A DNA stretch of 64,000 nt, taken from NCBI GenBank assembly GCA_029262335.1, contig JAJCZQ010000017.1:4033-68032 (forward strand). The letters are read 5' to 3'. The position numbers and the translations under genes were made by a program. How positions within the stretch are numbered: position 1 is the first letter of the stretch; every line of letters starts with the position of its first letter. This document shows positions 10,040 through 52,582 of this stretch, piece by piece. The DNA is from Deltaproteobacteria bacterium. GTDB lineage: Bacteria > Desulfobacterota_D > UBA1144 > Nemesobacterales > JAJCZQ01. Under the pieces are notes generated by a model. That model worked only from the letters and a program-made list of their open reading frames with translations. It was not told the DNA's origin and searched no databases.

Positions 10040-10130
10040 AAATATCCTCCTAAAAATCAATCCGGTAAAAATAATCTTATTTTTTATATTGTTCAATAGC
10101 ACACATTATATATAAGGTGAATATTGTACA

Positions 10131-10184: not shown

Positions 10185-11252
10185 TTAGAATTGCCCTATT
10201 TCTTCAGAAAAAATTAAAGCAGGGAAAAACATTGTATCCATTGAACCGCGTCCGTTACCGTTATTTAAACCAATATATCCGTAAAAACCTACAGTATTTT
10301 CTCCACGATTTTCAGGAGTAAGAACTACAACTCCTTCAGAAATTATATTACCGGGGCAAAGGAGTTCTCCTCCTTTACTGTTTGGTATAGCCTCATTAAT
10401 ACCGTATTCAAATCTTGCAACTGAAGCTGATGAACGTGCAAGGGTCTCACTACCTGCGAGTACAAGTATCTCTTCAATCAGGGGGTTGTTTTCATCAACG
10501 CAGGAAAATACAACGTCGCGGCATGAAAACAGGACTTCATTGTTATTAATTATATCCACATCGACTGCAACAAATGATTCAAGGACGTTGTCGAGAGTTG
10601 CTTCAAAAGTAAAAGTTTCATCACCTATGAAGTCATCATCATCATCGCCTATTGCAAACCTATCAGAACTTAATGCTATTCCGAAAACATCTGAAAGTAC
10701 AATTCCGGCCTCAGAGTTAAAATTAAAAGTATTAAAGAACTGTTCAATATTTATAGGTATTATTTGTCCGAAAAAACTCGGTGTGGAAGCAATATTGGTC
10801 CGGTATTCATAACCGGAACTATCTATCATCCTTATATTTCCAATTAGTGGTGTAGTTATGAATTCTGGGTCAATAACTAAAAATGGTATAGGTGCACTAA
10901 TAAACACTATTCCATATGCATCTTCAGGGAGTACTACACCAGAAGGGCTGCCGTCGTTGGTAAGAATGTCCCTTAGGTTGTAAACATGTGTGTCATTTGG
11001 TGTATAAAGGTCGAAAAAATTGTTTTCGTTACAAAGGTTTCCTACGTTATAGATCTGTATATGAAGGTTCTGGCTGGTTGAGTCTATATTAGTCAGCTGA
11101 ATATAAGACTCCCTGTCCCGCAGGTCAAAAGGAGCTGCCAATAGAAAGGACGAGTTGTCAGTCTCTGCCAGGCCAATTGGACCAAGCCCTGCAAAAGAGA
11201 TACCGGCAGGTGTGAAAAGTGTAATTAAAAGCAGTAAAGTTAAAATCCTCAT
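10185..11252 (-). CDS. Secreted protein, novel paralogous family, member 3
   Basis: Same conserved blocks. Poly-Asp variable loop (GDDDDDFIGDE). ATG with GGAGGA SD. Confidence 0.85.
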   Translation of the reverse strand: MRILTLLLLITLFTPAGISFAGLGPIGLAETDNSSFLLAAPFDLRDRESYIQLTNIDSTSQNLHIQIYNVGNLCNENNFFDLYTPNDTHVYNLRDILTNDGSPSGVVLPEDAYGIVFISAPIPFLVIDPEFITTPLIGNIRMIDSSGYEYRTNIASTPSFFGQIIPINIEQFFNTFNFNSEAGIVLSDVFGIALSSDRFAIGDDDDDFIGDETFTFEATLDNVLESFVAVDVDIINNNEVLFSCRDVVFSCVDENNPLIEEILVLAGSETLARSSASVARFEYGINEAIPNSKGGELLCPGNIISEGVVVLTPENRGENTVGFYGYIGLNNGNGRGSMDTMFFPALIFSEEIGQF

Positions 11253-27870: not shown

Positions 27871-28143
27871 ATGAACAAAGGACCGGAAATAAAAATATAC
27901 CAGGCTAAATCATCGCCATTATTGACAATATTTGTAATATTAATTGTTATAGCGGGGATTTCGCTATTCTTCTTTTTTGGTTTTATAGCCCTTATAGTTG
28001 CGGGCATACTTGCGATAGGGACCTCGCTGTACAGGTTCTTCATTCCAAAAAAACCAGATAAATTTAAAGATTATGACCCAAGGACAGGGACTATAACCCT
28101 CGAAGAAACTGATTACGAAATCACTGATAACGACAAGCAGTAA
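27871..28143 (+). CDS. Small membrane protein
   Basis: Two predicted TM helices. 90 aa. Confidence 0.4.
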   Translation: MNKGPEIKIYQAKSSPLLTIFVILIVIAGISLFFFFGFIALIVAGILAIGTSLYRFFIPKKPDKFKDYDPRTGTITLEETDYEITDNDKQ

Positions 28144-28168
28144 ATTAACCTTCTGATTTTTTCCGATA

Positions 28169-29470
28169 ATGCAGATACCTGTACTCAAAAGAGAGGTTGG
28201 GCCAAAAGGGGCAACAATAATTGGCCTTGGTTCAATGCTTGGGACAGGTGTATATATTGCCCTTGGACTTGCGTCGGGCCTCGTTGGATACTACATTTTC
28301 CTCTCTATTCTTATTGCAGGCGGGCTTGCTATATGCAACGGTTTTTCAAGCGCCCAGCTGGCTGCTAATCATCCGACCAGCGGGGGAAGCTACGAATTCG
28401 GCAGGATACACCTAAGCAAGGAAATAGGTTTTGTTGCAGGATGGGTGTTTATTTTTGCCAAAGGTGCTTCAGCTGCCGCAGCCTCTCTTGCAATAGCCTG
28501 GTATTTGAGATCATATTTCAATATAGAATACGAGCATTTTGATAAACTGCTTCCAGTGGTCACCATTTTTATACTCGGATGCATTATTCAGATGGGACTC
28601 AGGATTACCATAATTGTTAATACGGTAATCGTTTTAATTACGGTTATAACGCTTGTAAGCATAATAGTCTTCGGACTGTTTCTTGCACATAAAACAGGTA
28701 ATGTTCAGTTAACCACACTTCCCATGCATTTTTCGGACACGCAGTTCTTCTCATCATTTCTTTACGCTACTTCAATAGTGTTTGTGGCTTTTACGGGCTA
28801 CAGCAGGATAGCGACAATGGCTGAGGATATGAAGTCACCCGGTACAACAATAAGGTTTGCAATATTCTTTTCAATACTGATAGTGATGTTTTTGTATATC
28901 GGAGTTGCACTCACGGGGCTTTCTGTACTCGGCCCGGACAGTTTTTCTGATTTTTCTGTTAACAACGTTGCACCATTATTCGGCATTGCTGATGGTCTTA
29001 GTTCCAGGTTTTTGATGATTCTTGTTTCAATAGGTGCGGTTACCGCGATGCTTGGGGTTATGCTGAACCTTTTACTTGGAGTTTCAAGGGTCTTTCTTGC
29101 CATGGGAAGAAACGGAGACATGCCCCGGTTCCTTGCCACTATAAAAAATTCAAACCCAATCTACGCAACTATATTTGCATGCATTGTGGTTCTTGCCCTG
29201 ATGCTAATAGGAGATATTAAATCAAACTGGTCACTGAGTGCTTTTAAAGTGCTGGTTTATTATGCTATAACAAACCTTGCGGCATTAAAGCTGAAACCGG
29301 AGGACAGGTTTTTCCCCAGGTGGGTGTCTTACCTCGGGCTTTCGGGATGCCTGCTGCTCGTGGTTTTCTTTGAACACAAGACACTGCTCCAGGGAAGCAA
29401 ACTGATACTTGCAGGTATTATCTGGTTTTATGTCTTCCTTCTAATTAACCGTTTCAGGGTTTCCGGCTAA
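28169..29470 (+). CDS. APC-superfamily amino acid permease
   Basis: About 12 TM segments. Glycine-rich N-terminal helix IIGLGSMLGTGVYIALG typical of APC transporters. Confidence 0.7.
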   Translation: MQIPVLKREVGPKGATIIGLGSMLGTGVYIALGLASGLVGYYIFLSILIAGGLAICNGFSSAQLAANHPTSGGSYEFGRIHLSKEIGFVAGWVFIFAKGASAAAASLAIAWYLRSYFNIEYEHFDKLLPVVTIFILGCIIQMGLRITIIVNTVIVLITVITLVSIIVFGLFLAHKTGNVQLTTLPMHFSDTQFFSSFLYATSIVFVAFTGYSRIATMAEDMKSPGTTIRFAIFFSILIVMFLYIGVALTGLSVLGPDSFSDFSVNNVAPLFGIADGLSSRFLMILVSIGAVTAMLGVMLNLLLGVSRVFLAMGRNGDMPRFLATIKNSNPIYATIFACIVVLALMLIGDIKSNWSLSAFKVLVYYAITNLAALKLKPEDRFFPRWVSYLGLSGCLLLVVFFEHKTLLQGSKLILAGIIWFYVFLLINRFRVSG

Positions 29471-29752
29471 TACTGACTCATGTCTCTTTAGAATATTAAG
29501 GAGCTGTACCGCACCGAGTTCGAGAAGAAGCCAGGCTGTCATAATGGGGAACGAGTCGGGATTGTTTAATTTAAACTGAAAATACAGTCCAAACAGCACT
29601 CCTCCAAAACCGGGGACAATACCAAAAATCCTGATTAGAATCCTGAAAGTACCGAGGGCGTTGGGGTTGTGAACTGCCATCCTCAAAAAAATTACATTTA
29701 AAAACAGTAAAAGTAATGCTGCAGAATATGATCCTATTACGTAGTTGCTCAT
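29441..29752 (-). CDS. Small membrane protein (hypothetical)
   Basis: Three hydrophobic segments. Overlaps the permease 3' end by 30 nt. Uncertain. Confidence 0.35.
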   Translation of the reverse strand: MSNYVIGSYSAALLLLFLNVIFLRMAVHNPNALGTFRILIRIFGIVPGFGGVLFGLYFQFKLNNPDSFPIMTAWLLLELGAVQLLNILKRHESVLAGNPETVN

Positions 29753-30048
29753 GAGTTAAATGCTCCTTCGATTTCACCTGCGAGGTTAAAGTCTTTTTCC
29801 GTAAGGCCGCCGTCACTGTGTGTTGAGAGTGTGATCTTTACCTTGCTGTACTGGATCAGGATGTCGGGGTGGTGGTCGGCTTTTTCTGCAAGTATTGCGA
29901 TCTTGTTTACAAAACCTATTGAAGCTATGAAATTGCTAAGCTTAAAACTCTTTACAATTTCATTGCCGGCCCTTTCCCATCCGTTGAGATTTGCCAGATT
30001 ATTATTGATTTCAGTGTCGTTTAGTAACGCCATATATAACTCCTCCAT
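29749..30048 (-). CDS. Pterin-4a-carbinolamine dehydratase
   Basis: NGWER...EKADHHPDI...Y motif of PCD/DCoH. 99 aa. Confidence 0.85.
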   Translation of the reverse strand: MEELYMALLNDTEINNNLANLNGWERAGNEIVKSFKLSNFIASIGFVNKIAILAEKADHHPDILIQYSKVKITLSTHSDGGLTEKDFNLAGEIEGAFNS

Positions 30049-30105: not shown

Positions 30106-30603
30106 ATGTTTAATGTATTTATAGGTCTGGGCTCTAACCTTGGCAACAGGACCGAGAACTGCCTTGCAGCTATCGAGCACCTGTCGGACTTTACTATTAT
30201 CAAGTCTGTCTCGTCCTTTTACGAGACAGAACCTGTGGGTAATGAAGACCAGCCGAGGTTTATTAATGCCGTTGCAAAGGTTAATACACTTCTTTCTCCC
30301 CTGAATCTTCTAAACTCTCTTAAGACTGTTGAAAGCCAGCTTGGGCGCGAAAGGAATGAGAAATGGGGCCCAAGGACCATAGACCTCGATATTCTGATAT
30401 ATGAAGATTTTCAGCTGGACTCCCAGGAACTTACAATCCCCCACAAGGAACTTGTAACAAGAAGGTTTATGCTTGAACCGTTATGCGAAATAGAGCCGTG
30501 GCTTGAGCACCCAACTCACAATAAGACCATGAGTACAATCCTCAAAGAGCTTCAGGATGACCGCGAAGTTGTGATTGTCGGTAATTTTTACAAAAACAAT
30601 TAA
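30106..30603 (+). CDS. folK: 2-amino-4-hydroxy-6-hydroxymethyldihydropteridine pyrophosphokinase (HPPK)
   Basis: IGLGSNLGN, ETEPVG, PRTIDLDIL motifs. Confidence 0.9.
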   Translation: MFNVFIGLGSNLGNRTENCLAAIEHLSDFTIIKSVSSFYETEPVGNEDQPRFINAVAKVNTLLSPLNLLNSLKTVESQLGRERNEKWGPRTIDLDILIYEDFQLDSQELTIPHKELVTRRFMLEPLCEIEPWLEHPTHNKTMSTILKELQDDREVVIVGNFYKNN

Positions 30604-30714
30604 CAGTAATCCACAGCTTGTCCACAGCTTTTTAACTAATTATTCACCTGTTAATCCACAATTAATTGCATAATTTTTCTAAAGATGTGCATTCCTTAAT
30701 CAAAACGGCTATTT

Positions 30715-30730
30715 TGGCAGGCAAATTGCA
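30715..30730 (+). promoter_or_regulatory. Sigma-54 (RpoN) -24/-12 promoter element
   Basis: TGGCAG-gcaaa-TTGCA matches the TGGCAC-N5-TTGCA consensus with one mismatch. Lies about 43 nt upstream of the ATG at 30773. Confidence 0.55.
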
Positions 30731-30772
30731 TAGATATTTTAAGTATAGATAAGTTTTTTTAAGGAGAAATGG

Positions 30773-33733
30773 ATGAACCTGATACAATTACCAATACGAA
30801 ATTTATTACTAACTTTATTTACGCTAATCTTCTTTTTAACACTATTTACAATTAACTCTAACTCACAAAGCTGTAATGAAATGAATATACCAATGTGTAC
30901 TGACACCCAGATTGAAAATGATTGTAGTGGGTGTAAAAGTGCAGATCAACAGTACTGCTGTACGGATACAATGGGTTGTAACACTGATTTGACTACAATC
31001 TGTAATCCTCCATGTAATGAAAGTAACATTTGTCAGATGCCTGAAGAATGCACAGGAACCAGCATCCCCGATTGTGCACAGGACTTAACTGATTGTAGTG
31101 TATGTGGTGAAAATGATTTTTGTTGCCCATCCTCAACTGGCGGCACTGCTGCCTGTGGTACAACATTCGATGGTTTATGTAATGGCAATACCTGTACTGA
31201 CCAAAATATATGTAAATATGTGCCGCTTCCCCCTGTACTTGAAAGAGAATTTACATTTATAAATAATTGTAGTGAAACAGTCTGGGTAGGAGCTCTAACC
31301 AACCAGTTTGAAGGCGGTTTCGAACTCACCGGATCCTGCACTATGGATTCTGACTGCATGAATGCCTGTCCTACAATTACAGGAATAAGCAACTGTTCTT
31401 CCTCCTGTTTAAACGGATCATGCACGGTTGAATTTACCGGTAATATTAATACAGCTACTGCAGACAGTATATCAGGAAGGTTCTGGCCAATGACCGGATG
31501 CAGTTTTAATGGTTCTCAGGAATGCGAGGGAACTGACAGGTGCTGTGATACGGGGAGCTGTACTATATCCGGCGGAGGTTTTGGACTTCAGTGCAACAGC
31601 TCCGGGGATTCACCTAACACTGTCGCAGAGTTTACACTTACTTCAGGGGCCAACAATGATTTTTATGATATTAGTTTAATAGACGGATATAACGTGCCGG
31701 TTGAGATGAAGCCTGCCGGAACTGCCGCAGACGCACCGACTGGTTTTGACACTTCTTACTGGTGTGCTAACCCGGGAGGTGTTGAATCAACAATAATTCC
31801 GGAGGTCTGTAACTGGGACACTACTTTCGGTACTGACTGTGCCGGTAACCCTGATTTCAGGACGGTAGGATCACTTCAGACCTGTACTGAGGATTCAGAC
31901 TGTGGTTCAGGAACGTGCAATGTGAGTTCCGGTGTATGCGAATGTAAGGATGATACTGACTGTAATCAAACAGGGAATATATGCGGGGTTCCTGACCCGG
32001 GCTTTACGGGTTTTAAAGCCTGCGGGACTCAGACAGGTTGTACAACGGCAAAAGATATATGCGGCTTGTATTTCGGACAGGGTGAAAAAGGTGATACCTG
32101 CGGACAGGATGAACTTTGCTCAAGTGGTACCTGCCTTGCGCCCAACACTCCGAAAACCTGCATGATGGACAGTGACTGCAATGCTGTTTGTATGAACGGT
32201 ACATGTGAAAATAATAGCAATATAAGCTGTACGCTAGATAGTGAATGCACAGCCAATTGTGTAGATGGGCAATGCTGGAAACCATGCACATTGACAAGTG
32301 ATTGTAATGGTGAGGAAGTATGTGCCGAGGGAGTTTGCCAGTGTATACCTAATGTCTGCAACTCTATGGGTATGTGTACTAATGACGGAGATTCCTGTAC
32401 AACAACTGCAGATTGTACACAGACCTGTGGTGGTTTTTGTACCGAGGGGCCTGCAGATTTTCTTGATTGCAACGAACTTGTAACGACTAATAAACAGGTT
32501 GCATGCTCTGTAGATACGGATTGTCCTGCATTAGTAGGCCTTCCTGCATGTACAACGAATTCCGACTGTCCGGAGAACACTACATGTGAAGATTTTGGTG
32601 CGATGCCGGCTCCGGGACAACCCGAAATTGCAAAAGTATGCAGGCTCACATGTGATACAAATACAGGTTTCTGTTCAGGTCCCACATGTACTGACAACAG
32701 TGACTGTACAGGGATGAGTAACGGTGTAAGCCTGAGCGGAACATTTATGCAGTGTGATACGAGCACCAGTCCAGGCAGCTGCGTTGCAACAAATACAAGC
32801 CTGTATGAAGGTGCCGGTTTAACAGGACAGTCCTGCTATATAAATTATTATGGGGGTTTTGCACCGTCATTATCCTGTAATGGATGCCCGACAGCTTGTG
32901 ATGATCCTCCATGTAATCCGGCACAGGCAGCTAATTCCAAATGGCCTTCACCTGCTACCAATGAGAGTTGTAAAAATACTAATTCGGACTGGGTAAGTGT
33001 TGCGGAACCATTAGTTGAAGGATTCAAGGAAGCATGCCCTTCAGCTTACAGCTTCCCGTTTGACGACCCAACAAGTACTTTCCAGTGTACAAATGATACG
33101 CAGACAAACAGCATGGGGTATGAAATTACTTTTTGTCCCGCGGGAACACCAATACCGCCACCGCCTCCACCTCCGGTAATTGATGATGATACAACGGAAC
33201 CTCCAATAAAAATTAACCCGGGTAGTAACGGGCCGTTTGTTTCGATCGAATTTGATCCCGAACTTGATGGGGGAGGCCAGATTTTTGTAGGCCTTCCGCC
33301 GGGAGTCCTTGCGGAGTTTGCACAGCTGAACCCCGTTGTAGGAGACTGTGAAATAGTAAGCCAGACTGCAAGGGTAACGGACCCAGATGTAATATGCAGG
33401 GTAGATGATTTTCCCGAAAACCTTGATATGCTCATAGAGTTCTGCAAAGAAGCAGATCAGCAGGGTGTTGTTCAGGCCGCTGTTGAGGTACTGAGTGACG
33501 GAATACCCGAAGAAGAATTCAGTAATTTCCTCGACATACTTCTTGATGAGCTGGATTTATGCGCTAGTAATGATGACGATGCAGGTGATGATGGAAGCGG
33601 TGACATTACAACTGGAGATGATACTGGTACCGGTTGTTCGCTGACTCCGGCAGGCAGTGAATCAAACGCCTTGCCTCTACTGCTGTTAATCCCGGCATTT
33701 ATAATTATCAGAAGATTAAGAAATAAAAAGTAG
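30773..33733 (+). CDS. Secreted cysteine-rich thaumatin (PR-5)-like domain protein with C-terminal sorting-signal-like tail
   Basis: Thaumatin blocks: FTFINNCSETVWVGA, GRFWPMTGCSF...CDTGSC...VAEFTL...DFYDISLIDGYNVPVEM, FKEACPSAYSFPFDDPTSTFQC...YEITFCP. Many CTxDSDC modules inserted within domain II. PPPPPPPP linker. C-terminal GCSLTPAG + hydrophobic stretch + RRLRNKK. Confidence 0.8.
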   Translation: MNLIQLPIRNLLLTLFTLIFFLTLFTINSNSQSCNEMNIPMCTDTQIENDCSGCKSADQQYCCTDTMGCNTDLTTICNPPCNESNICQMPEECTGTSIPDCAQDLTDCSVCGENDFCCPSSTGGTAACGTTFDGLCNGNTCTDQNICKYVPLPPVLEREFTFINNCSETVWVGALTNQFEGGFELTGSCTMDSDCMNACPTITGISNCSSSCLNGSCTVEFTGNINTATADSISGRFWPMTGCSFNGSQECEGTDRCCDTGSCTISGGGFGLQCNSSGDSPNTVAEFTLTSGANNDFYDISLIDGYNVPVEMKPAGTAADAPTGFDTSYWCANPGGVESTIIPEVCNWDTTFGTDCAGNPDFRTVGSLQTCTEDSDCGSGTCNVSSGVCECKDDTDCNQTGNICGVPDPGFTGFKACGTQTGCTTAKDICGLYFGQGEKGDTCGQDELCSSGTCLAPNTPKTCMMDSDCNAVCMNGTCENNSNISCTLDSECTANCVDGQCWKPCTLTSDCNGEEVCAEGVCQCIPNVCNSMGMCTNDGDSCTTTADCTQTCGGFCTEGPADFLDCNELVTTNKQVACSVDTDCPALVGLPACTTNSDCPENTTCEDFGAMPAPGQPEIAKVCRLTCDTNTGFCSGPTCTDNSDCTGMSNGVSLSGTFMQCDTSTSPGSCVATNTSLYEGAGLTGQSCYINYYGGFAPSLSCNGCPTACDDPPCNPAQAANSKWPSPATNESCKNTNSDWVSVAEPLVEGFKEACPSAYSFPFDDPTSTFQCTNDTQTNSMGYEITFCPAGTPIPPPPPPPVIDDDTTEPPIKINPGSNGPFVSIEFDPELDGGGQIFVGLPPGVLAEFAQLNPVVGDCEIVSQTARVTDPDVICRVDDFPENLDMLIEFCKEADQQGVVQAAVEVLSDGIPEEEFSNFLDILLDELDLCASNDDDAGDDGSGDITTGDDTGTGCSLTPAGSESNALPLLLLIPAFIIIRRLRNKK

Positions 33734-33735
33734 AA

Positions 33736-33778
33736 TAAAAAAAGGGAGCAATGATTATAGTTCATTGCTCCTTTTTGA
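33736..33778 (+). terminator. Family-B hairpin terminator, copy 5
   Basis: AAAAAAAGGGAGCAATG-attatagtt-CATTGCTCCTTTTT. Confidence 0.75.
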
Positions 33779-33795
33779 GTTTTATCATGTTTTTC

Positions 33796-34092
33796 TTAAC
33801 TCTTATCGCAGTCTGAAAGTTTTTGTGCCACGAGTGAATTTGAAGCGTCTGTAGCAACAAATGGTTTGTAGAAGCATTCTATTTCAGAGTTGTTATTGCT
33901 GAGTTTCTGTACAGCTAATGAATTAGAAGCATCTGTGGCAACAAATGCGTTTGATTCTATACTGGAATTTTCATCCAGCATCTGTACTGCAAGAGAGTTT
34001 GAAGCATCGGTAGCCACGAAAGGTGCTGCATATGAAAATACCGGCATTCCTAGAACAGCAATTAAAGCTAAAATCTTAATATATTTAAACAT
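33796..34092 (-). CDS. Small secreted tandem-repeat protein (3x FVATDASNSLAVQKLS)
   Basis: GGAGG SD, signal peptide MFKYIKILALIAVLGMPVFSYA, then three imperfect roughly 25-aa repeats. Confidence 0.6.
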   Translation of the reverse strand: MFKYIKILALIAVLGMPVFSYAAPFVATDASNSLAVQMLDENSSIESNAFVATDASNSLAVQKLSNNNSEIECFYKPFVATDASNSLVAQKLSDCDKS

Positions 34093-34354
34093 TTTAAAGC
34101 CTCCTGAGTTTTTAGTTACAGTATTATAGTTGCATGTGCAACTATAAGGATTCATAATACTTCAAATTATTTTCAATACCGGAAAATATTCATTAAAAGG
34201 TCTTCAACTCAACTGCTAACTATTTCATATTACTTATTAGAATAAAAACCTGTTATTTCAGAACTTAATTCCCACTAAAATATAAAAATCAGTAGAAACC
34301 GTTAATCCAATAGGCAGACTATGATTTATTGATATCTGTTTTGGAGGACTCAGT

Positions 34355-35458
34355 ATGGCCAGCATTATTAACGATTTTAAAATTGTTGTTTTTATCAGTT
34401 TTATATTAATCGCAATTACATTTTTTAACTGCGGGGGCGATAGTATAGATTCATCCACAAACAGCAGTTCACCGGAACTCAGCAGAATTGACGGACGTGT
34501 TACTGAGGTGCTGGCATTAAAAATAGATGAAAAACAGTCACATTTTGCTGAAATTAAAAATACATTGAGTTTTACCGTGACAGCTACCGCCCAGGGGTCC
34601 TTAGTGGATGGAATTTTAGTTATGGCTATTGGGAATGATTCAAACGGTGAAAAGCTTTTGGACCAGGATACAACAGCCTTTGATGGCAGTTTCAGCCTGT
34701 TTGTCCCGGCCGGGGAAGTTGCTCTGCAGTTTGAAGTTGATAACGAAGTATATGAAAAAGTATTGCAGGTCCCTGAGGAAACCACTGTTGAAATACTGGT
34801 CAGCATAGATAAAGAAGATAAAGTAAACCCGGTTGAAATATCCGGTCCGGATGAAGTTGGCGAAGAGGAAAATACGGAAGATACTATTGATGAAACGGAA
34901 GATAATAGTGAAGACATGAATAATGAAAATGATGTTCCTGAGCCGGAAGATACTAATGACATGCAGGATGAAGATGAGCAGACAGGTAATGATGACGATG
35001 ACAATCAGGGTGATTTTGATCCACCATCTTCGGGAGAAGGGAATATAACTTCGGCAGAATTAGTCTCTTCGGTAAACTCAAGACGGGCCCAGGGGGCAAA
35101 TTGCGGATCCGAAGGGTCATTCGGGCCACAGGGGCCGCTTGGAATAAGTAACTCTCTTGGTGAAGCGGCACTCAGGCATTCAGTAGATATGTCAGAAAAC
35201 AATTTTTTTGAACACCGGGGTTCTGACGGATCAAGCCCTATAGACAGAATGAGGGATGCGGGGTTTGCCGGAAACGGCTGGGGTGAGAATATCTCACGTG
35301 CAAGCTATGAAAGATCAGCCGAGGAAGTAGTAGCAGGCTGGATGACAAGTGACGGGCACTGTTCAAACATTATGACCCCGGGTTTTAATGTCCTGGGTTC
35401 TGCAAAAGCAGCTAACAGCAACTGGGAAAACTGGACACTTAATCTCGGTACTGAGTAA
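34355..35458 (+). CDS. CAP (SCP/PR-1-like, YkwD-type) domain lipoprotein with acidic linker
   Basis: Lipobox FFNCGG. Long D/E-rich linker. C-terminal CAP region (ELVSSVNSRRAQGANCGSEG...EHRGSDGSSPIDRMRDAGF...GENI...AGWMTSDGHCSNIM). Confidence 0.75.
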   Translation: MASIINDFKIVVFISFILIAITFFNCGGDSIDSSTNSSSPELSRIDGRVTEVLALKIDEKQSHFAEIKNTLSFTVTATAQGSLVDGILVMAIGNDSNGEKLLDQDTTAFDGSFSLFVPAGEVALQFEVDNEVYEKVLQVPEETTVEILVSIDKEDKVNPVEISGPDEVGEEENTEDTIDETEDNSEDMNNENDVPEPEDTNDMQDEDEQTGNDDDDNQGDFDPPSSGEGNITSAELVSSVNSRRAQGANCGSEGSFGPQGPLGISNSLGEAALRHSVDMSENNFFEHRGSDGSSPIDRMRDAGFAGNGWGENISRASYERSAEEVVAGWMTSDGHCSNIMTPGFNVLGSAKAANSNWENWTLNLGTE

Positions 35459-35566
35459 ATATAAAATCAGAAGCATTAACTCTGATCTAAACTGAATAGT
35501 TATTCTTAAATTAGTAAAAATAATATATACTTCTAAGGTATTAAAATAGTTTATGGAGGATCATAA

Positions 35567-36556
35567 ATGAGAGTATCATCTTTTTTAATAGCAGTTTCAC
35601 TTTGTTTAAGTTTTACAGTAATTTCAATTCAGGAAAGTTCTTCCCAGGCACTACCTATTGCAGAGTCTGACGCTGCAGGGCCACAGTTGATTGGTTTTTT
35701 TGACCTTAGGGAGAGAGAATCTTTCATGCAGTTAACTAATACCGATAGTGCAGTACAAACAGTACATATTCAGCTTTTCAATGTTAATGACAACTGCAAC
35801 GAAAACAATTTCTTTGATGACTATACCGCTAACGATACACATATATATAATCTGAGAGACATTCAGACTAACGATGGAAACCCACCGGGAGTAGTACTCC
35901 CAGCTGATGCTTATGGAATATTTGTTGCAACTTATGTGAATAAACCAAATGTTATGCAGCCCCCTCTTGCATTAGTAGGAAACCTAAGAGTTATTGACAA
36001 CAGCGGCTACGAATACAGGACAAATCTGCTTAGCTCCCTTGCCTCTGAAATTCAATCAATTTTTGACCCGGTAACCTTCAACTTTAATTCTGAAGCCGGT
36101 GTAACACTTTCAGATGTGATAGGTATTCCACTTGACGATTTAGGTGAATTCGAACTACCTGCTGAAGTGTTTGCAGCTGACGTTACAAATATATGGTTAA
36201 GCTTTGATGTAAATATATTGGATAATATTGAAAATATATTTTCATGCAGGGATATAACATTTGCCTGTGTCAACGATCAGAATCCTTTATTAGAAGAATT
36301 GTTGGCTGCATCACAAACCAGTGTTGCGAGCTTTGAATACGGTATCAACAATGCAATACCTCACAGCAAGGGTGGAGAACTTCTTTGTCCTGGTAATACA
36401 ATATCCGAAGGGGTTGTTACACTAACAAATATTGACGTTGGATTTGAATCACAACCTACTTACTTTATTTTTGTAGGTCTTAACAATGGAAACGGCAGGG
36501 GTAGTCTGGATGTAATCTGGAACGATCAGATACCTGATATGATGGGTGGTGGTTAA
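35567..36556 (+). CDS. Secreted protein, novel paralogous family, member 4
   Basis: FFDLRERESFMQLTN, NDNCNENNFFD, NDTHIYNLRDIQTNDGNPPGVVLP, GYEYRTN, FSCRDITFACVNDQNPLLEE, FEYGINNAIPHSKGGELLCPGN, GLNNGNGRGS. Confidence 0.85.
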   Translation: MRVSSFLIAVSLCLSFTVISIQESSSQALPIAESDAAGPQLIGFFDLRERESFMQLTNTDSAVQTVHIQLFNVNDNCNENNFFDDYTANDTHIYNLRDIQTNDGNPPGVVLPADAYGIFVATYVNKPNVMQPPLALVGNLRVIDNSGYEYRTNLLSSLASEIQSIFDPVTFNFNSEAGVTLSDVIGIPLDDLGEFELPAEVFAADVTNIWLSFDVNILDNIENIFSCRDITFACVNDQNPLLEELLAASQTSVASFEYGINNAIPHSKGGELLCPGNTISEGVVTLTNIDVGFESQPTYFIFVGLNNGNGRGSLDVIWNDQIPDMMGGG

Positions 36557-36571
36557 TAACTAAAAAATCAG

Positions 36572-36612
36572 AAAAAGGGGCAATATTCTTATCATTGCTC
36601 CCCTAATTCTTT
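36572..36612 (+). terminator. Family-B hairpin terminator, copy 6
   Basis: AAAAAGGGGCAAT-attcttatc-ATTGCTCCCC followed by T-rich sequence, with a bulged stem. Confidence 0.6.
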
Positions 36613-36621
36613 TTAGTTTTT

Positions 36622-37476
36622 TTATTTCCCTGCCGAAAGCTTAGCTGACTCGAGTGTGTTCCAGAGCAGCATTGTTATTGTCATTGGGCCTACGCCTCCG
36701 GGTACAGGAGTTATGTATGAAACCTTGTCAGAAAGGTTTGCAAAGTCCACGTCACCTGTGAGCTTGCCTTCTTCGTTCCTGTTTATTCCAACATCAATTA
36801 CAACCGCGCCGTCTTTTACCATGTCTGCTGTAATAAAATTTGCCCTTCCGATAGCAGCCACGAGTATATCAGCACGCCTTGTAACTTCCCCAAGGTCTTT
36901 TGTGCGTGAATGGCATGTTGTTACGGTTGCGTGCCTGTGAAGAAGGAGCATACCTACAGGTTTGCCCACAATGTTGCTTCTTCCAACAACTACAGCCTCT
37001 GCGCCTTTTATTTCAATATTGTAGTAGTCAAGCATCTTGATAATGCCGTAAGGGGTGCAGGAAATAAATCTTGGGTTTCCTTCCACAAGCCTACCTACAT
37101 TTTCAGGATGAAAACCGTCCACGTCTTTAAGGGGGGTTACGTTTCTAAGTATGTTTGTTTCATTTATATGGTCCGGCAGCGGGAGCTGTACGAGTATGCC
37201 GTGAATTTTGTCATCATTGTTTAATTTGTTTACAAGTGCAAGAAGTTCTTCCTCGGTAGTTTCAGCCGGCAGTTTGTGCTCTTCGGAATATATTCCGACC
37301 TTTTCGCATGCTTTTCTTTTATTTCTCACATAGATTTCTGAAGCAGGGTCATCACCAACGAGTACCGCAGCAAGTCCCGGTGTGATACCACTGCTGCTTT
37401 TAAGTTCTTCGACTCCTTTGGCAATTTCCTCGCGTGTATCTTCAGATACTTTTTTACCATCAATTAACTCAGACAT
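36622..37476 (-). CDS. folD: Bifunctional methylenetetrahydrofolate dehydrogenase/cyclohydrolase
   Basis: [33 protein letters not shown] and [15 protein letters not shown] motifs. Confidence 0.92.
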
Positions 37477-37561: not shown

Positions 37562-38008
37562 ATGAGCAGAATAAATATCCCGCCATTTTATCTTCTGATT
37601 TCAATAATTGCATTATTTGTCCTTAACTATTTAATACCAATTATGGCCCTGTTTTATCCACCATTTAATTATTTTGGGGTAGTTATTATTTTTGTTGGGC
37701 TCGCGGTGATACTTTGGCATGCCGACTATTTTAAAAGACACAATACTCCTATTAAACCATTCGAGCCTTCCACGTTTCTAATCAAAGAGGGGTTGTATAA
37801 ATATAGCCGAAATCCAATTTACCTGTGTATGGGGATAATACTGTTTGGGGGTGCAATGCTGCTCGGGACTCTTTCCCCTTTTGTAGTTGTCCCTGTGTTT
37901 ATTGTTGTAATTGAAAGAAAGTTTATTGTTAAGGAAGAGGGGTTTCTTGAAAATATATTCGGAAATGATTACCTGGAATATAAAAAATCTGTAAGAAGGT
38001 GGCTATAA
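37562..38008 (+). CDS. Isoprenylcysteine carboxyl methyltransferase (ICMT/PEMT)-family membrane protein
   Basis: Multi-TM. YSRNPIYLCMGIILFG and E..F..EE..L motif typical of ICMT-like methyltransferases. Confidence 0.6.
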   Translation: MSRINIPPFYLLISIIALFVLNYLIPIMALFYPPFNYFGVVIIFVGLAVILWHADYFKRHNTPIKPFEPSTFLIKEGLYKYSRNPIYLCMGIILFGGAMLLGTLSPFVVVPVFIVVIERKFIVKEEGFLENIFGNDYLEYKKSVRRWL

Positions 38009-38012
38009 GAGA

Positions 38013-38591
38013 ATGAAAAATAATGCCGGTTTATACTATGTTATTCTTGCTTTATGGCTGGTTGCCGCAGCAGCAGTGGGGCATCTGGGCCTTTTGAATA
38101 AAGTAAGGCCGCCTCTGATAATACCGGCACTGGTACTGCTGCTTGTTGTATTTTATCTCACTGCACCATCTTTCAGAATTTGGCTAAATTCAATCTCTCT
38201 AAATGCTCTGGTATCAATACACCTCATTCGTTTTATAGGATTTTATTTTTTATATCTATACGGAAAAGGACTGCTTCCATATGAATTCGCGGTATACGGA
38301 GGCTGGGGAGATATCGTAGTAGCAGCTCTTGCACTGATTATATTAATTTTAAGTGCCGAGGGAATAATTAAAAATTATAAATATTTTAATAACTGGAACC
38401 TTATAGGCCTGGTAGATATTCTTTTTGTGGTCTCAACTGCAGCAAGGCTGTATAAAGCAGACCCCGCGTCTATGTCAGAGCTTACGCATCTGCCCCTAAG
38501 CCTGCTCCCGACTTTTATTGTGCCTTTAATTATATTTTCACACCTTCTAATATATTTCCGCTTAAGAAAGAAAAGGTTATCTGTGGTTTAG
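38013..38591 (+). CDS. Polytopic membrane protein (hypothetical)
   Basis: About 6 TM segments. No recognised motif. Confidence 0.4.
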   Translation: MKNNAGLYYVILALWLVAAAAVGHLGLLNKVRPPLIIPALVLLLVVFYLTAPSFRIWLNSISLNALVSIHLIRFIGFYFLYLYGKGLLPYEFAVYGGWGDIVVAALALIILILSAEGIIKNYKYFNNWNLIGLVDILFVVSTAARLYKADPASMSELTHLPLSLLPTFIVPLIIFSHLLIYFRLRKKRLSVV

Positions 38592-39263
38592 GTAATACCT
38601 GGAAAGCACTTCGGGGGACCACCCAAAAAAGTAGGCTGTCCTCATCATGCTGATATTAAGTACTGTCTTAAATACACCGCCTCGCTCAAACCTCCTTACG
38701 CTCGTAAGTACATAGTGGTCAATTCTTTTGCCAACTGATATTTCCTTTAATTTTTTGACAAGCTCTACATCTTCCATGATCGGGATGTCCGGGTATCCGC
38801 CTATTTTGTTAAAGTTTTCCCTTTTTACGAAGATGCCGTGGTCCCCGAGCGGTTCCTGTACCAGTTTGGTCCTGTATGAGGCAAGTGTTTCAAGGACCCT
38901 GTAAATAAACTTTGGGGAATCAAGTTTTATGGAAAACCAGCCCCAGTTAAGACTGTTTTCCTTTATCTCTCTTCTGAGCTTATTAATCCCTGTTGCATCA
39001 ATGCTTGTGTCAGCATGCAGGAAAAAAAGATATTCCTTACCTGACTCGCTTGCGCCCCTGTTCATCTGGACGGCCCTTCCCCTTTTGCTTTCCCTGATAA
39101 GGATTACCTCTTTGAACTTCATCACCTTATCAGCTGTATCGTCTTCACTGCCCCCATCGACAACTATTACTTCATCATCAGTTGAAATTAAGGAAAGTAG
39201 TTTACGGATATTATGTTCAATTGTATTTGATTCGTTGTATGTCGGAATTATAAAGGAGATCAT
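38577..39263 (-). CDS. Family 2 glycosyltransferase
   Basis: MISFIIPTYNE start (ATG 39263) preferred over the 39425 extension that overlaps thiD. DGGSEDDT motif. Confidence 0.75.
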   Translation of the reverse strand: MISFIIPTYNESNTIEHNIRKLLSLISTDDEVIVVDGGSEDDTADKVMKFKEVILIRESKRGRAVQMNRGASESGKEYLFFLHADTSIDATGINKLRREIKENSLNWGWFSIKLDSPKFIYRVLETLASYRTKLVQEPLGDHGIFVKRENFNKIGGYPDIPIMEDVELVKKLKEISVGKRIDHYVLTSVRRFERGGVFKTVLNISMMRTAYFFGWSPEVLSRYYLNHR

Positions 39264-39274
39264 TGCTGACTCTT

Positions 39275-40066
39275 TTACCTGTGATGAATTAGCCTTCTCT
39301 CTTTCTTTTTGTACCCAAGTGATTTCCGGAGAGAACCCGATATATATCTCTTGGCAGACCTTACGGCATCTTCCATGCTGTTGCCTTTTGAAAGTCCGGC
39401 ACAAATAGCAGCCGAGAATGTGCATCCGGTCCCGTGAAAATTCATGCTTCTCAGCCTTTTGGCACGAAATTCGATAAATTTCTTTCCATCATAAAGCAGG
39501 TCATTTGAATTAACGGTATCTCTCCGGTGTCCGCCTTTTATCAAAACATACGTACAGCCCAGCTCTCTTAGTTCAATTGCAGCCTGTTTAATTGATTGTA
39601 TTCCGTTTATTGTTTTACCAGTGAGTACTTCAGTCTCATGAATGTTGGGCGTAATTACCAGGCTCTTTGGGATAAGGTCTGATTTTAAGAGGCCGATTGC
39701 GTTTTTATTTAGCAGCAGCGTACCACTTGTAGAAATAATTACGGGGTCAACCACCAAATTTTTGATTTTGTATTTTTTAATCTTATCTGCAACTACTTTT
39801 ATTATCTTTTTATTAGAGAGCATTCCCGTTTTTACTGCATTAAAGCCCATGTCCTTATAAATTGCGTCAATCTGTTTGCCTACAAACTCAGGGGGTATGT
39901 CCTGAATAGCCGTGACTTCATAAATATTTTGAGCAGTAAGAGAGGTTATTACCGACTGTCCGTATACACCCAAAGCGGTAAAAGTTTTAAGGTCGGCCTG
40001 TATACCTGCTCCCCCGCTTGGGTCGGAGCCGGCAATGGTCAAAGCTACTGGCAGATTTGCATTCAC
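39275..40066 (-). CDS. thiD: Hydroxymethylpyrimidine/phosphomethylpyrimidine kinase
   Basis: [19 protein letters not shown] and [10 protein letters not shown] motifs. Confidence 0.9.
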
Positions 40067-49637: not shown

Positions 49638-50645
49638 ATGAAAAATATAAAAATAATTTCGGTGTTTTTACTTCTTTTGGCTATTACATTTTTTCCGGCC
49701 CAGTCAAAGGCTGGTACTGCTACCCCGTTTAATGCATCCGGGACTGATAGCTCTGCTTTTGACAGTTTAATCTATTTTTTTGACCTGCGAGACAGAGAAA
49801 CATTTATCCAGCTTACATATTTTGAAGAAGTCATTCAGGGGATTTCTGCAAATATACACATTCAGATATTTGATGTTTCAAACAACTGTAACGAAAATAA
49901 TTTCTTTGATGTCTATACACCCAACGATACGCATGTCTACAATATGAGGGATATCCAGACTAACGACGGTAGCCCTTCAGGAGTAGTGCTTCCGGAAGGG
50001 GCTTACGGGATTGTTACAATTATATTTGAACCGGTTATTAATGCTCAGGTCGGTATTGGTATGATCGGAAACATGAGGGTGCTTGATAATAATGGCTACG
50101 AATACAGAACAAATGCTCAGTATTTTTCCAGGGCGGGCGGACCGGGTAGTGGCTCATCACCCGAGGATTTTTATTCCTTTAACTTTAACCAGGAAGCCGG
50201 TGTAACCTTATCTGATGTAATCGGTATTACATTGTCTTCTACTGATACCGAAAATAGCTTTGAATATCTTGCAGATCCTTTAACAGCATTTAATACTTTC
50301 GATATTGATATAATTGACAACAATGAAGTTCCTTTTTCCTGTAGAGACATAATTTTTGCATGTGTCAACCAGGATAGTGTTCTACTCGAACCACTTCTGG
50401 AATTTGCCGGAACTGCAAGTGTGGCGGATTTTGAATATGGAATTAACAATGTAATCCCTCACAGTAAAGGTGGAGAACTTCTCTGTCCTGGCAATGTGAC
50501 AGGTGAAGGTTTTGTTATCTTAAGGCCTGAACTACAGCCAACTACGGAAAGCTTTCGTAGTTTTTATGGTTTTGTTGGATTAAATAACGGCAATGGCAGA
50601 GGCAGCCTTGATTCCTTTTGGCAGTTTTTTGTTCAGCCTACATAA
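49638..50645 (+). CDS. Secreted protein, novel paralogous family, member 5
   Basis: FFDLRDRETFIQLT, NNCNENNFFD, NDTHVYNMRDIQTNDGSPSGVVLP, GYEYRTN, FSCRDIIFACVNQD, FEYGINNVIPHSKGGELLCPGN, GLNNGNGRGS. AAAGGAG SD. Confidence 0.85.
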   Translation: MKNIKIISVFLLLLAITFFPAQSKAGTATPFNASGTDSSAFDSLIYFFDLRDRETFIQLTYFEEVIQGISANIHIQIFDVSNNCNENNFFDVYTPNDTHVYNMRDIQTNDGSPSGVVLPEGAYGIVTIIFEPVINAQVGIGMIGNMRVLDNNGYEYRTNAQYFSRAGGPGSGSSPEDFYSFNFNQEAGVTLSDVIGITLSSTDTENSFEYLADPLTAFNTFDIDIIDNNEVPFSCRDIIFACVNQDSVLLEPLLEFAGTASVADFEYGINNVIPHSKGGELLCPGNVTGEGFVILRPELQPTTESFRSFYGFVGLNNGNGRGSLDSFWQFFVQPT

Positions 50646-50950: not shown

Positions 50951-51265
50951 ATGTTTATAATAAAAGAATATCTTGATAATAAAGGTAATAGCCCTTTTCA
51001 GTCATGGTTTAATAAATTAAGTGTCCATGCTGCATCAAAAGTAACTATTGCATTAACCAGGTTGGAAAATGGTAATTTGTCCAATGTTAAATCACTAAAA
51101 GGCGGAGTTTTTGAAATAAAGATTAATTATGGCCCTGGTTTTAGAATTTATTATGGTCTTGAGGGAAGAAAAATAATTATAATGCTTTGTGGCGGGACTA
51201 AAAAAAATCAGCAAAAAGATATAAATAAAGCTAAAGATTTATGGAAGATATATAAAGGATTATAA
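50951..51265 (+). CDS. Addiction-module killer protein (HigB/RelE-like, COG3657 type)
   Basis: FQSWFNKL, GNLSNVKSLKGGVFEIKINYGPGFRIYYGLEG..IIMLCGGTKKNQQKDI. Immediately followed by the cognate antidote gene. Confidence 0.8.
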   Translation: MFIIKEYLDNKGNSPFQSWFNKLSVHAASKVTIALTRLENGNLSNVKSLKGGVFEIKINYGPGFRIYYGLEGRKIIIMLCGGTKKNQQKDINKAKDLWKIYKGL

Positions 51266-51266
51266 A

Positions 51267-51581
51267 ATGCCAACCAGAGATTATAAAGAAACAATTCGTG
51301 AGAGAGTAATTAATGACCCGCCCTTCAAAAAGGTCTTATTAGAAGAAGCACTCGTATGCCTTTTGTCCGGTGATGTTGATACAGGTAAAGCAGTATTAAA
51401 AGATTATATAAAGGCAACAACCGGATTTGAAAATCTTTCAAAGAATATTGATAAAAAGCCAGAAAGTTTAATACGAATGCTGGGGCCAAAAGGTAATCCA
51501 ACAGCAAATAATCTTTTTAAAATTATTTCTCATATTCAAAAGAAGGAAAAGTTGAAATTTAAAGTTAGTGTTAGTGACTAA
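51267..51581 (+). CDS. Addiction-module antidote protein (HTH, COG3636 type)
   Basis: Start 1 nt after the toxin stop. HTH region LSKNIDKKPESLIRMLGPKGNPTANNLFKII. Confidence 0.75.
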   Translation: MPTRDYKETIRERVINDPPFKKVLLEEALVCLLSGDVDTGKAVLKDYIKATTGFENLSKNIDKKPESLIRMLGPKGNPTANNLFKIISHIQKKEKLKFKVSVSD

Positions 51582-51790
51582 CTGTTATCCCGTCAACGTG
51601 ATTATCGCCTAGTATCTCTTCCTCCTTGACGGGGGAAGATTAAGATGGGGGTGAACTGTTCACCTGTCATCTCGAAAGAAGAGAGAAATCTTTCTATTAA
51701 TTCTGATCCGGAATCCAGAATTGTGTTGTTGCGAGAAAAAGAGTTACGCAACACCCTTTTTCTTCATTCTTTTAATTTCGGTTTTATAAT
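51582..51790. repeat. Mosaic short-repeat cluster
   Basis: CAACGTGATTATCGCCTAGTAT, GTCATCTCGAAAGAAGAGAGA and CCGGAATCCAGAAT modules. TTGCGAGAAAAAGAGTTACGCAA hairpin. Confidence 0.6.
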
Positions 51791-51796
51791 TATGGA

Positions 51797-52147
51797 ATGA
51801 CCAAAGAAGAAAATCTTATTACAGTATTAAAACAATACAACGACAACGCCAAGCACCTGGCTTTTTTAAACACAGGAGTACTAGCCTTTTTTATAGCATT
51901 TCTTAACAGAATAGAACTTCCAAAGTTAGCAATTGCATTAATGATAATATTACTTTTATTTTCATTAGTACTTTCTTTAATGGTTGTTGGGAGAACATTA
52001 AGGGATATTGAGTTTTTAATTACTAAACAAAAAATTATTGAAGTGGACTTTAAATTAATAAATAAACTCTGGATGTCAGGTGTCTGGTGTTTTATCGGAG
52101 CAATTTATTCTGTAGGAATAATTACTTTGTTTGATTTATTGGATTGA
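51797..52147 (+). CDS. Small 3-TM membrane protein
   Basis: Three hydrophobic helices. 116 aa. Directly upstream of the HNH gene. Confidence 0.45.
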   Translation: MTKEENLITVLKQYNDNAKHLAFLNTGVLAFFIAFLNRIELPKLAIALMIILLLFSLVLSLMVVGRTLRDIEFLITKQKIIEVDFKLINKLWMSGVWCFIGAIYSVGIITLFDLLD

Positions 52148-52153
52148 AAATGT

Positions 52154-52582
52154 GTGCGTTCCCATTACTTGTTTCCTTTATTTTTTTATCATTCCTTTGA
52201 AAAAAATAGAATTAAAGCAAAAGGTTCTAATTTATTCAAAAGAAATGCCGCCGTGGCGAGAGAAAAGTTAAGATTATCAAACTATAAATGTGCAATTGAT
52301 AAAGATCATATTACTTTACTTTGTTTATCAACTGACAAAAACTATGTTGAAGCACATCATTTAATACCAATGAATAAACAAGATGAATTTCAATACAGTA
52401 TTAATGTAGAAGAAAATATTTTTGCTTTATGTCCTAATTGTCATAGGAAAATTCATTACAGATCAATTGAAGATATTTCAAAAATGTTAATAGATTTGCT
52501 AGATAATAAAACTATTATTGTCCTAAAAAAAAGAGGTATTCCTGTTAGTTTACATAAATTATTAAATTATTATTTCTCATGA
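52154..52582 (+). CDS. HNH endonuclease-domain protein
   Basis: CAIDKDH...HHLIP...N...ALCPNCHRKIH, a canonical HNH motif. GTG start, start position uncertain. Confidence 0.65.
   Translation: MRSHYLFPLFFYHSFEKNRIKAKGSNLFKRNAAVAREKLRLSNYKCAIDKDHITLLCLSTDKNYVEAHHLIPMNKQDEFQYSINVEENIFALCPNCHRKIHYRSIEDISKMLIDLLDNKTIIVLKKRGIPVSLHKLLNYYFS

Follow-up and report, generated by a model that had tools for sequence, protein, structure and literature searches.

Proteins of the thaumatin family (PF00314) occur in plants, where the PR-5, osmotin and thaumatin-like proteins are soluble and approximately 200 amino acids (aa) in length, and in bacteria, where they include Legionella LegT, whose NCBIfam model (NF045527) bears the name of a Dot/Icm type IV secretion effector. 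Bacterial proteins with a CAP/SCP domain are represented by the YkwD (TIGR02909) and DalA (NF052539) families and by the solved structure 4ifa, which was deposited as an extracellular SCP-domain protein. Among bacterial surface-anchoring signals, those of the MYXO-CTERM type combine a Cys-containing motif, a transmembrane helix and an Arg-rich tail. Riboswitches of the cyclic di-GMP-I (c-di-GMP-I) class typically govern surface, attachment and motility genes. Here we describe an insert between the folate genes folK and folD that is related to each of these systems. It lies in a stretch of 64,000 nucleotides (the window; contig JAJCZQ010000017.1, positions 4,033 to 68,032 of the forward strand) and comprises four genes, which encode a giant thaumatin-like protein (TLP), a 98-aa triple-repeat peptide (pep98), a CAP-domain lipoprotein and one member of a multi-copy family (paralog 4). 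An earlier note on this DNA had located the four genes between PCD, folK and folD, and both the open reading frames (ORFs) and the Pfam matches of the flanks confirm that arrangement, as well as the view that all four products are exported or surface proteins. The same note had suggested that the block is an acquired, host-interaction-related or eukaryote-derived secretome island. We instead put at roughly 0.6 the probability of a different reading, based on sequence comparison, in which envelope-protein genes accumulated in three steps at a permissive folK-folD site and include a recombining surface TLP with predicted glycan-binding activity.

Stepwise assembly of the insert

The genomic surroundings of folD homologs were retrieved as 80 loci, onto which the window proteins were mapped; in what follows, L-numbers designate loci of relatives and P-numbers designate the relatives' proteins. 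The window is chromosomal DNA of an uncultured bacterium of marine type that belongs to Candidatus Dadabacteria. SMC, SecA, SurA and AsmA-like genes surround the region, and folD is 97% identical to that of the metagenome-assembled genome (MAG) CSMAG_3085, with the next best matches in other Dadabacteria or "Thermodesulfobacteriota" MAGs. The flanking genes and the parts of the insert are as follows.

29749-30048, minus strand: PCD, flanking gene (Pfam scan)
30106-30603, plus strand: folK (Pfam HPPK, E = 2e-40), left flank of the insertion site
~30650-34280, no strand: second insertion, TLP plus the 98-aa peptide, delimited by spacer homology with CAP-only relatives
30773-33733, plus strand: TLP, 986 aa (Pfam Thaumatin)
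33740-33776, no strand: bidirectional hairpin terminator of the convergent TLP and pep98 genes, with a 15-bp stem and T runs on both strands
33796-34092, minus strand: pep98, secreted (Sec signal; ORF as called, 33796-34155)
34355-35458, plus strand: CAP/SCP-domain lipoprotein, 367 aa (Pfam CAP), oldest layer of the insert
35459-36621, plus strand: strain-level 1.1-kb cassette with its own upstream region, the paralog-4 gene and a hairpin terminator
35567-36556, plus strand: paralog 4, 329 aa, no Pfam family
~36577-36603: hairpin terminator after paralog 4, related to the hairpin at 33740-33776
36622-37476, minus strand: folD (Pfam THF_DHG_CYH and THF_DHG_CYH_C), right flank of the insertion site

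In approximately 45 Dadabacteria species, folD is followed by folK within 50-400 bp, then by PCD and then by (MoxR) SecA. Since this adjacency is intact in so many species, the block is a real insertion, and the earlier proposal that it splits a folate gene neighborhood was borne out by the synteny comparison. Among the closer relatives, where folD is 97-99% identical in sister genomes, we found three nested states. A CAP gene alone, without TLP and without the peptide, lies between folK and folD in L092 and L093, the latter being an outgroup (folK 74% and folD 92% identical) and the former falling inside the clade (folK 93% identical). The order folK-TLP-peptide-CAP-folD is present in L081/L084, L082 and L083, with the stop codons of CAP and folD 13-21 nt apart, and the full set of TLP, peptide, CAP and paralog 4 was found in the window, L087/L089 and L088 only. 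The spacer of L092 aligns with the 3' flank of folK and then directly with window positions 34284-34301. These data revealed that the folK-folD junction of one genus-level Dadabacteria lineage is a variable chromosomal spot that was filled in three separate steps, and not by one acquisition as had been supposed. The CAP/SCP lipoprotein gene was inserted first; in the CAP-only relatives it stands behind a c-di-GMP-I riboswitch. The convergent pair of TLP and the 98-aa peptide then entered upstream of CAP, and the riboswitch was not detected in the pair-bearing genomes. In the third step, which only some strains underwent, the 13-nt spacer between CAP and folD received a 1.1-kb cassette with one member of a multi-copy family of secreted beta-sandwich proteins.

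The interruption of conserved synteny is also a point in favor of the alternative proposed in the earlier note, namely that the block is a single, horizontally acquired, eukaryote-derived secretome island that combines a PR-5-like with a PR-1-like protein and is tied to an animal-type heme peroxidase. We consider this alternative highly improbable. The CAP-only and paralog-less intermediates (L092, L093 and L082) largely refute a single origin, and the composition of the block is ordinary: the GC contents of the four genes are 0.45, 0.36, 0.44 and 0.38 as compared with a window mean of 0.398 (standard deviation 0.04), and their codon distances are within the range of native genes, so that neither a GC nor a codon anomaly was found from 30.7 to 36.6 kb, where a deviation had been suggested as a check. 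This ordinary composition indicates that the insert has been resident long enough to match that of the genome. Signs of mobility were equally lacking. The interval from 29.4 to 37.7 kb contains no integrase or transposase ORF, no tRNA or other Rfam family reached its gathering score anywhere in the window, and a phage search with the block returned no match, while the sole plasmid match was a short stretch of a Legionella thaumatin-family gene. The only flanking repeat is a 10-nt direct repeat around the paralog-4 cassette. Finally, a run of genes from folD to DUF1318, in an order that sister genomes keep, stands between the block and the peroxidase, and this argues against the link that had been drawn between these two.

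At this site or next to it, other Dadabacteria have quite different genes. A pair of P-loop NTPase genes (1365 aa and 427 aa) lies between folK and PCD in L027 (1739-7116) and L049 (11532-16909), three giant ORFs of 545-809 aa are present in L033 (12230-18312), and L002 (6404-9731) has a carbonic-anhydrase-like gene together with a tagged 783-aa protein, whose C-terminal hydrophobic stretch and basic tail resemble the TLP tag. Given this unrelated cargo, the folD-folK-PCD site is a recurrent landing place for accessory genes.

Domain organization of TLP

TLP scored 41.1 bits against Pfam Thaumatin (cut-off 27.4), in two stretches. Its best solved-structure matches are plant osmotins; a PDB osmotin aligns over residues 223-320 and again over residues 749-791 (E = 4.6e-18). 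The C-terminal region of the NCBIfam LegT model also matched: the C-terminal core of TLP aligns with LegT positions 653-764 (E = 9e-14), with a score of 51 bits that is far under the equivalog cut-off of 1200. The protein is divided as follows.

Residues 1-32: signal peptide
Residues 33-155 (30869-31237): two Cys-rich N-terminal modules of ~57 aa each
Residues 156-320 (31238-31732): thaumatin core N
Residues 321-744 (31733-33004): expanded Cys-rich domain II, ~425 aa, with C-x-D-S-D-C-type modules
Residues 745-792 (33005-33148): thaumatin core C
Residues 793-952: poly-Pro linker and conserved C-terminal module of ~160 aa
Residues 953-986 (33629-33730): Cys/transmembrane/basic sorting tag

The two core segments are thus 425 aa apart, versus 55-78 aa in the shortest class of TLPs. 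The alleles P0004 and P0006 have three N-terminal Cys modules instead of two, and neither these modules nor the C-terminal anchor module matched any Pfam family. All five residues of the acidic cleft (REDDD) align with the osmotin motifs, as R236, E286, D299, D304 and D765; the last four are invariant in 10 sequences, and R236 is conserved among the Dadabacteria orthologs.

The C-terminal tail reads G-C-S-L-T-P...LLLLIPAFIII-RRLRNKK, of which GC...LLLLIPA..RR is conserved in orthologs, and the tag ...GTGCSLTPAGSESNALPLLLLIPAFIIIRRLRNKK is kept in orthologs as well as in P0009 and P0011. No other ORF in the window ends in a Cys, a transmembrane segment and a basic tail, the three-part layout of MYXO-CTERM-type signals. 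The module and tag (residues 805-983; 33185-33733) recur in the large proteins P0172, P0183, P0189, P0219 and P0236, and proteins that share the C-terminal module carry EGF, Ca-EGF, thrombospondin type 3 or beta-propeller domains. The recurrence of the C-terminal module together with the tail suggests a common surface-anchor cassette. TLP would thus be a disulfide-rich protein that is exported by the Sec pathway and probably held on the cell surface by its C-terminal tag. In this respect it differs from LegT, since it bears a Sec signal and a sorting tag and not the assignment of a Dot/Icm effector.

The TLP gene is a mosaic of divergent alleles

Comparison of the window with L082 revealed a sharp local rise in divergence at the TLP gene. 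SecA, the permease and folD are 99.3-99.6% identical between the two, with a background synonymous divergence (dS) of approximately 0.08, whereas TLP is only 83-88% identical. At the DNA level, the flanks are 96-100% identical, the region from 30.7 to 33.0 kb is 64-93% identical with insertions and deletions, and the 3' third of the TLP gene is again 96-99% identical. Among the segments, dS reaches 0.77 for the N-terminal modules and 0.48 for domain II, while the core has 0.28-0.45 and the anchor 0.07, such that the exposed modules have 4-10 times the synonymous divergence of the flanks. The ratio of nonsynonymous to synonymous divergence (dN/dS) is 0.02-0.28 outside the short signal-peptide segment. 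In-situ positive selection was considered as a source of the divergence and ruled out, as dS is elevated and dN/dS is below 0.3.

The closest allele changes along the protein. Residues 1-100 of the window TLP are closest to P0004 (85-98% identity, versus 51-66% to the L082 allele), residues 100-320 to P0002, 320-380 to P0007, 440-520 to P0003 and 660-720 to P0006 or P0004. Over its N-terminal two-thirds, the TLP gene is pieced together from old, divergent alleles that were exchanged by homologous recombination, as opposed to the conserved thaumatin core, anchor module at the C-terminus and neighboring peptide. Frequency-dependent selection by phages, grazers or hosts may keep the exposed Cys-rich modules diverse. 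The closest described parallels are recombining mosaic surface-protein loci, such as phase- or antigen-variable adhesins and phage-receptor loci. Like these, TLP combines a conserved anchor and core with exposed modules that are swapped between lineages, and dS many times the background with dN/dS below 1. Unlike these, it shows no silent cassettes, invertible promoters or diversity-generating retroelement at the locus, and its variation apparently comes from homologous recombination between strains only.

Predicted function of TLP

The intact acidic cleft is predicted to bind, and perhaps to cut, beta-glucan-type polysaccharide on particles, prey or hosts. As judged from these features, the insert most likely encodes a variable cell-surface module with a predicted glycan-binding function. 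According to published genomics, the Dadabacteria live heterotrophically by recycling organic matter of microbial origin, and their clades occur in pelagic, sediment, hydrothermal and sponge habitats (PMC8115339). This published lifestyle is compatible with a particle- or host-binding role, which it does not prove.

A narrower possibility is that TLP is a host-association adhesin or mimic of symbiotic Dadabacteria, for example in sponges, whose variable modules evade or match host recognition. Marine sponges are among the habitats of Dadabacteria genomes in the genomic survey cited above (PMC8115339), the TLP anchor is shared with proteins that carry EGF, Ca-EGF and thrombospondin-3 repeats, matrix domains of a typically 'eukaryote-like' kind, and an allele mosaic suits an antagonistic or recognition interface. 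We nevertheless regard this as unlikely: the sister contigs come from assorted, unannotated metagenomes, the closest block-bearing relatives carry no host-derived label, and nothing connects the thaumatin cleft with an animal ligand. A literature search found no paper that mentions Dadabacteria together with thaumatin.

Ancestry of TLP

An exhaustive, profile-free search with TLP yielded 1181 relatives, only a minority of which have organism names. Beyond its orthologs, the nearest are "long" TLPs with an enlarged Cys-rich domain II. The named long TLPs, which share this enlargement with the window protein, belong to Xanthomonadales, Nannocystaceae, Candidatus Binatia and Candidatus Electrothrix, along with two eukaryotes, Corallochytrium limacisporum and Undaria. 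Domain II lengths form a series of 55-78 aa (the shortest class, which includes the plant protein P0013), 115-135, 165-225, 260-320 and 383-458 aa, the last class consisting of Dadabacteria and Xanthomonadales proteins. TLP therefore stands within the bacterial thaumatin family by virtue of its core, which exceeds the Pfam gathering cut-off, and is set apart by the largest domain II (383-458 aa versus 165-320 aa in other long TLPs), by extra N-terminal Cys modules and by its recombination-mosaic alleles.

Plant PR-5 proteins have the conserved core segments and the REDDD residues in common with TLP. However, they match over the core only, at ~1e-14 to 1e-18 (~1e-14 in the search with TLP), and in a neighbor-joining tree of the core, computed without support values and with most tips unlabelled, the Dadabacteria TLPs fall inside the long-TLP clade and the plant proteins on a separate branch. 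Recent descent from a plant-type PR-5 protein is thus excluded, and nothing else indicates it. The description of TLP as PR-5-like was therefore correct as far as the fold and the acidic cleft are concerned, and not as regards its nearest named relatives, which are mostly bacterial.

These results bear on the idea of a eukaryote-derived island. In its favor, analyses of Legionella genomes place thaumatin among the eukaryotic motifs (PMC4256840), osmotins are the best structural matches, and one close relative comes from a protist: P0158 (EukProt Clim_evm11s98, Corallochytrium limacisporum, 552 aa) is 45% identical to TLP (E = 2e-95), expanded Cys-rich domain II included. This protein reflects either inter-domain transfer or a contaminant of the eukaryotic assembly. 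Transfer between domains somewhere in the long-TLP clade is possible, in either direction. The distance of the plants, and the mainly bacterial named membership of that clade, count against a eukaryotic source for the block.

The CAP lipoprotein and a lost riboswitch

The CAP domain of the second exported protein (residues ~235-367; 35057-35455) scored 48.9 bits against Pfam CAP (PF00188; cut-off 21.1) over residues 260-363. A conserved NCGG lipobox-like motif, an N-terminal domain without a family match and a poly-acidic linker complete the protein, in agreement with its earlier description as a CAP-domain lipoprotein with such a linker. Its best NCBIfam models are DalA (2.5e-17) and YkwD (9e-14), both under their cut-offs, and its sole PDB match at E <= 1 is 4ifa; no PDB chain named PR-1, CRISP or GAPR matched the domain. 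More distant metagenomic homologs are annotated YkwD, and the motifs HS.DM, GENI and W..S.GH..NI are shared with YkwD, DalA and 4ifa. These sequence comparisons assign the CAP domain to the common YkwD/SCP type of bacteria. The proposed kinship with PR-1 was not sustained, and the lack of any match to a eukaryotic structure is a further point against a eukaryote-derived island. Because it remains under both NCBIfam cut-offs, the protein is the equivalog of neither YkwD nor DalA, from which it differs also by its own N-terminal domain and poly-acidic linker, and by the riboswitch that precedes its orthologs in CAP-only genomes.

That riboswitch (c-di-GMP-I, RF01051) lies approximately 80 nt upstream of the CAP ortholog, at 4197-4280 in L092 and 1324-1408 in L093, and in both loci scored 74 bits (gathering score 35, E ~2e-13). 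A covariance-model search for RF01051 detected none in the window or in the TLP-bearing sister genomes. Since the riboswitch precedes CAP in the CAP-only genomes only, this oldest layer would once have been under c-di-GMP control, which was later lost. The CAP lipoprotein may belong to a c-di-GMP-controlled attachment programme.

The 98-aa peptide and the shared terminator

The start of pep98 was set at 34092, giving 98 aa, because orthologs conserve a start there. In the peptide, PFVATDASNSL(A/V)(V/A)Q occurs three times with linkers that vary, and two Cys residues are invariant; the three FVATDASNSL repeats agree with its earlier characterization as a 3x-repeat peptide. It is 86-99% identical across four genomes with the repeats invariant, its dN/dS is 0.07-0.31, and the repeat motif was found in TLP-bearing loci only, always in 3 copies. 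No Pfam or NCBIfam family matched it. We considered whether pep98 could be a multi-core precursor of a ribosomally synthesized and post-translationally modified peptide and rejected this, as it has a Sec-type signal ending in SYA and its neighbors are TLP and CAP, with no maturase present.

The hairpin at 33740-33776, an exact palindrome that is unique in the window, serves the TLP and pep98 genes from both sides. Terminators of one family ("family B") had been assigned to each of the four genes. This was correct for TLP and pep98, which share the bidirectional hairpin, and for paralog 4, and incorrect for the CAP gene, which has none.

The invariant pep98 may be a partner of TLP. A bolder version of this idea is that the two form a two-part surface recognition system, in which a hypervariable thaumatin-type lectin works with a conserved peptide that acts as ligand, chaperone or co-receptor, and in which the long-TLP clade may have crossed the boundary between bacteria and eukaryotes, as with Corallochytrium. 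We hold this bolder version to be quite unlikely.

The paralog-4 cassette and its family

The cassette fills what is a spacer of 13-21 nt between CAP and folD in sister genomes, and it is absent from L081, L082 and L083. A 10-nt direct repeat, AAAATCAGAA, flanks it at 35464 and 36565. L087/L089 and L088 carry a paralog 4 with 100% identity to that of the window, and dS between the window and L089 is 0.019, as compared with 0.09-0.13 in the flanks. The cassette is therefore younger than the split of the strains and was spread by recombination. The family to which it belongs has five copies in the window, as follows.

7846-8847, minus strand: copy 1
9041-10102, minus strand: copy 2
10185-11252, minus strand: copy 3
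35567-36556, plus strand: copy 4 (paralog 4)
49638-50645, plus strand: copy 5

The five are 48-72% identical to one another and paralog 4 is 48-55% identical to the other four, which upholds its earlier assignment to the family. These proteins are secreted, approximately 330 aa long, and have more than 900 metagenomic homologs without a Pfam or NCBIfam match; their invariant positions include many Asp, Asn, His and Arg residues. An AlphaFold2 (AF2) model of paralog 4, with a predicted local distance difference test score (pLDDT) of 83.6, is all-beta with two beta-sandwich domains, and its sole structural match in the fold libraries searched is TM1070, a protein with no assigned function. Hairpins resembling the paralog-4 terminator also follow paralogs 1-3. 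Copies 1-3 are arranged in tandem with near-identical hairpin terminators, and copy 5 is located directly downstream of the heme peroxidase. A 329-aa ORF after the SLT gene in L089 was examined as a further paralog insertion and turned out to be a piece of the AsmA-like gene, in an assembly with 3x coverage.

Other features of the window

Accessory genes have entered a second time next to the same core genes, between MoxR and PCD (27871-29752); their products are an APC-family amino-acid permease and, on either side of it, membrane proteins of 90 aa and 103 aa. The 90-aa protein and the permease are missing there in most Dadabacteria, and the 103-aa protein has weak homologs in L002 and L003. 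On the other side of the insert, 37562-39425 encodes an ICMT/PEMT-like methyltransferase, a 192-aa polytopic membrane protein without a family match and a TIGR04283-type GT2 glycosyltransferase. Most Dadabacteria lack these genes between folD and thiD; the methyltransferase is present also in L093 and, more distantly related, in L004. As L093 has the methyltransferase without TLP, the enzyme is unlikely to process the Cys tag of TLP. Three same-strand DnaA-box-like motifs (TAATCCACA, TTGTCCACA and TAATCCACA) are found within 54 nt (30607-30660), 3' of folK and upstream of TLP, and the spacers of L092 and L093 carry similar (T)CACAG motifs; across the window such motifs occur at chance level, and the GC skew has no origin-like switch at 30607-30660.

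The genuine candidate for recent acquisition in the window is a low-GC islet (50951-52582; GC 0.25-0.32) with the strongest codon deviation of the whole stretch, which encodes a Gp49/HigB-like protein, two small ORFs without assignment and an HNH endonuclease. Two 574-aa AMP-binding (acyl-CoA synthetase-like) paralogs, 61% identical, are located at 57086-58810 and 59997-61718 with a Na/Ca-exchanger gene between them.

Discussion

Several observations weigh against the three-step assembly of a surface-anchored, glycan-binding locus. L092 lies inside the TLP-bearing clade, so that the CAP-only state could be a secondary loss and not primitive. TLP and CAP are separate transcription units, and the more distant TLPs P0010 and P0011 occur in unrelated contexts without a CAP neighbor; the three layers may therefore be passengers of one permissive site with no function in common. 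Furthermore, the tag of TLP differs from MYXO-CTERM-type signals in that it matches no NCBIfam sorting model at E <= 0.1, the Pfam-scanned ORFs of the window (about two-thirds of the total) include no sorting enzyme of the CPBP, rhomboid or exosortase kind, and an AF2 model of full-length TLP, built from a 10-sequence alignment, was unusable (pLDDT 38).

The notion of unrelated passengers can be extended to an explanation of the whole locus, in which the layers are functionally unlinked, the folK-folD spacer is permissive and TLP diversity results from relaxed constraint on repetitive Cys modules. The different cargo at or beside the site in L027, L049, L033 and L002 agrees with this, as do the separate transcription units of the block genes and the CAP-less distant TLPs. 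On the other hand, TLP and pep98 always occur together and have their terminator in common, dN/dS of 0.1-0.28 in the variable modules indicates purifying selection and not decay, and high dS points to imported old alleles and not to local relaxation. We consider this explanation doubtful, and favor the stepwise growth of an envelope-protein insert with a recombining surface TLP. The side-by-side placement of PR-5 and PR-1 domains is, given the distant TLPs without CAP, a lineage-specific coincidence of location.

TLP is a giant, recombining and probably anchored protein of the bacterial thaumatin family with a dedicated peptide neighbor. For genome scans, the locus is a caution that PR-5 and PR-1 domains occurring together in a bacterium are no sign of a eukaryote-derived island. 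It documents the layer-by-layer growth of a "secretome island" at one permissive site, with the intermediates preserved in relatives, and the lost c-di-GMP riboswitch hints at the former regulation of CAP. It also shows the thaumatin fold in a new form: in an uncultured phylum, the fold makes up the core of a giant protein with predicted surface anchoring. The shuffling of TLP modules between lineages would be the signature of an interface under frequency-dependent selection, for which the intact acidic cleft suggests specific candidate glycans, such as laminarin, and the co-occurring, invariant pep98 is a candidate partner. If TLP and pep98 did prove to form a recognition system, bacteria would be using the thaumatin fold in a way that has not been described before.

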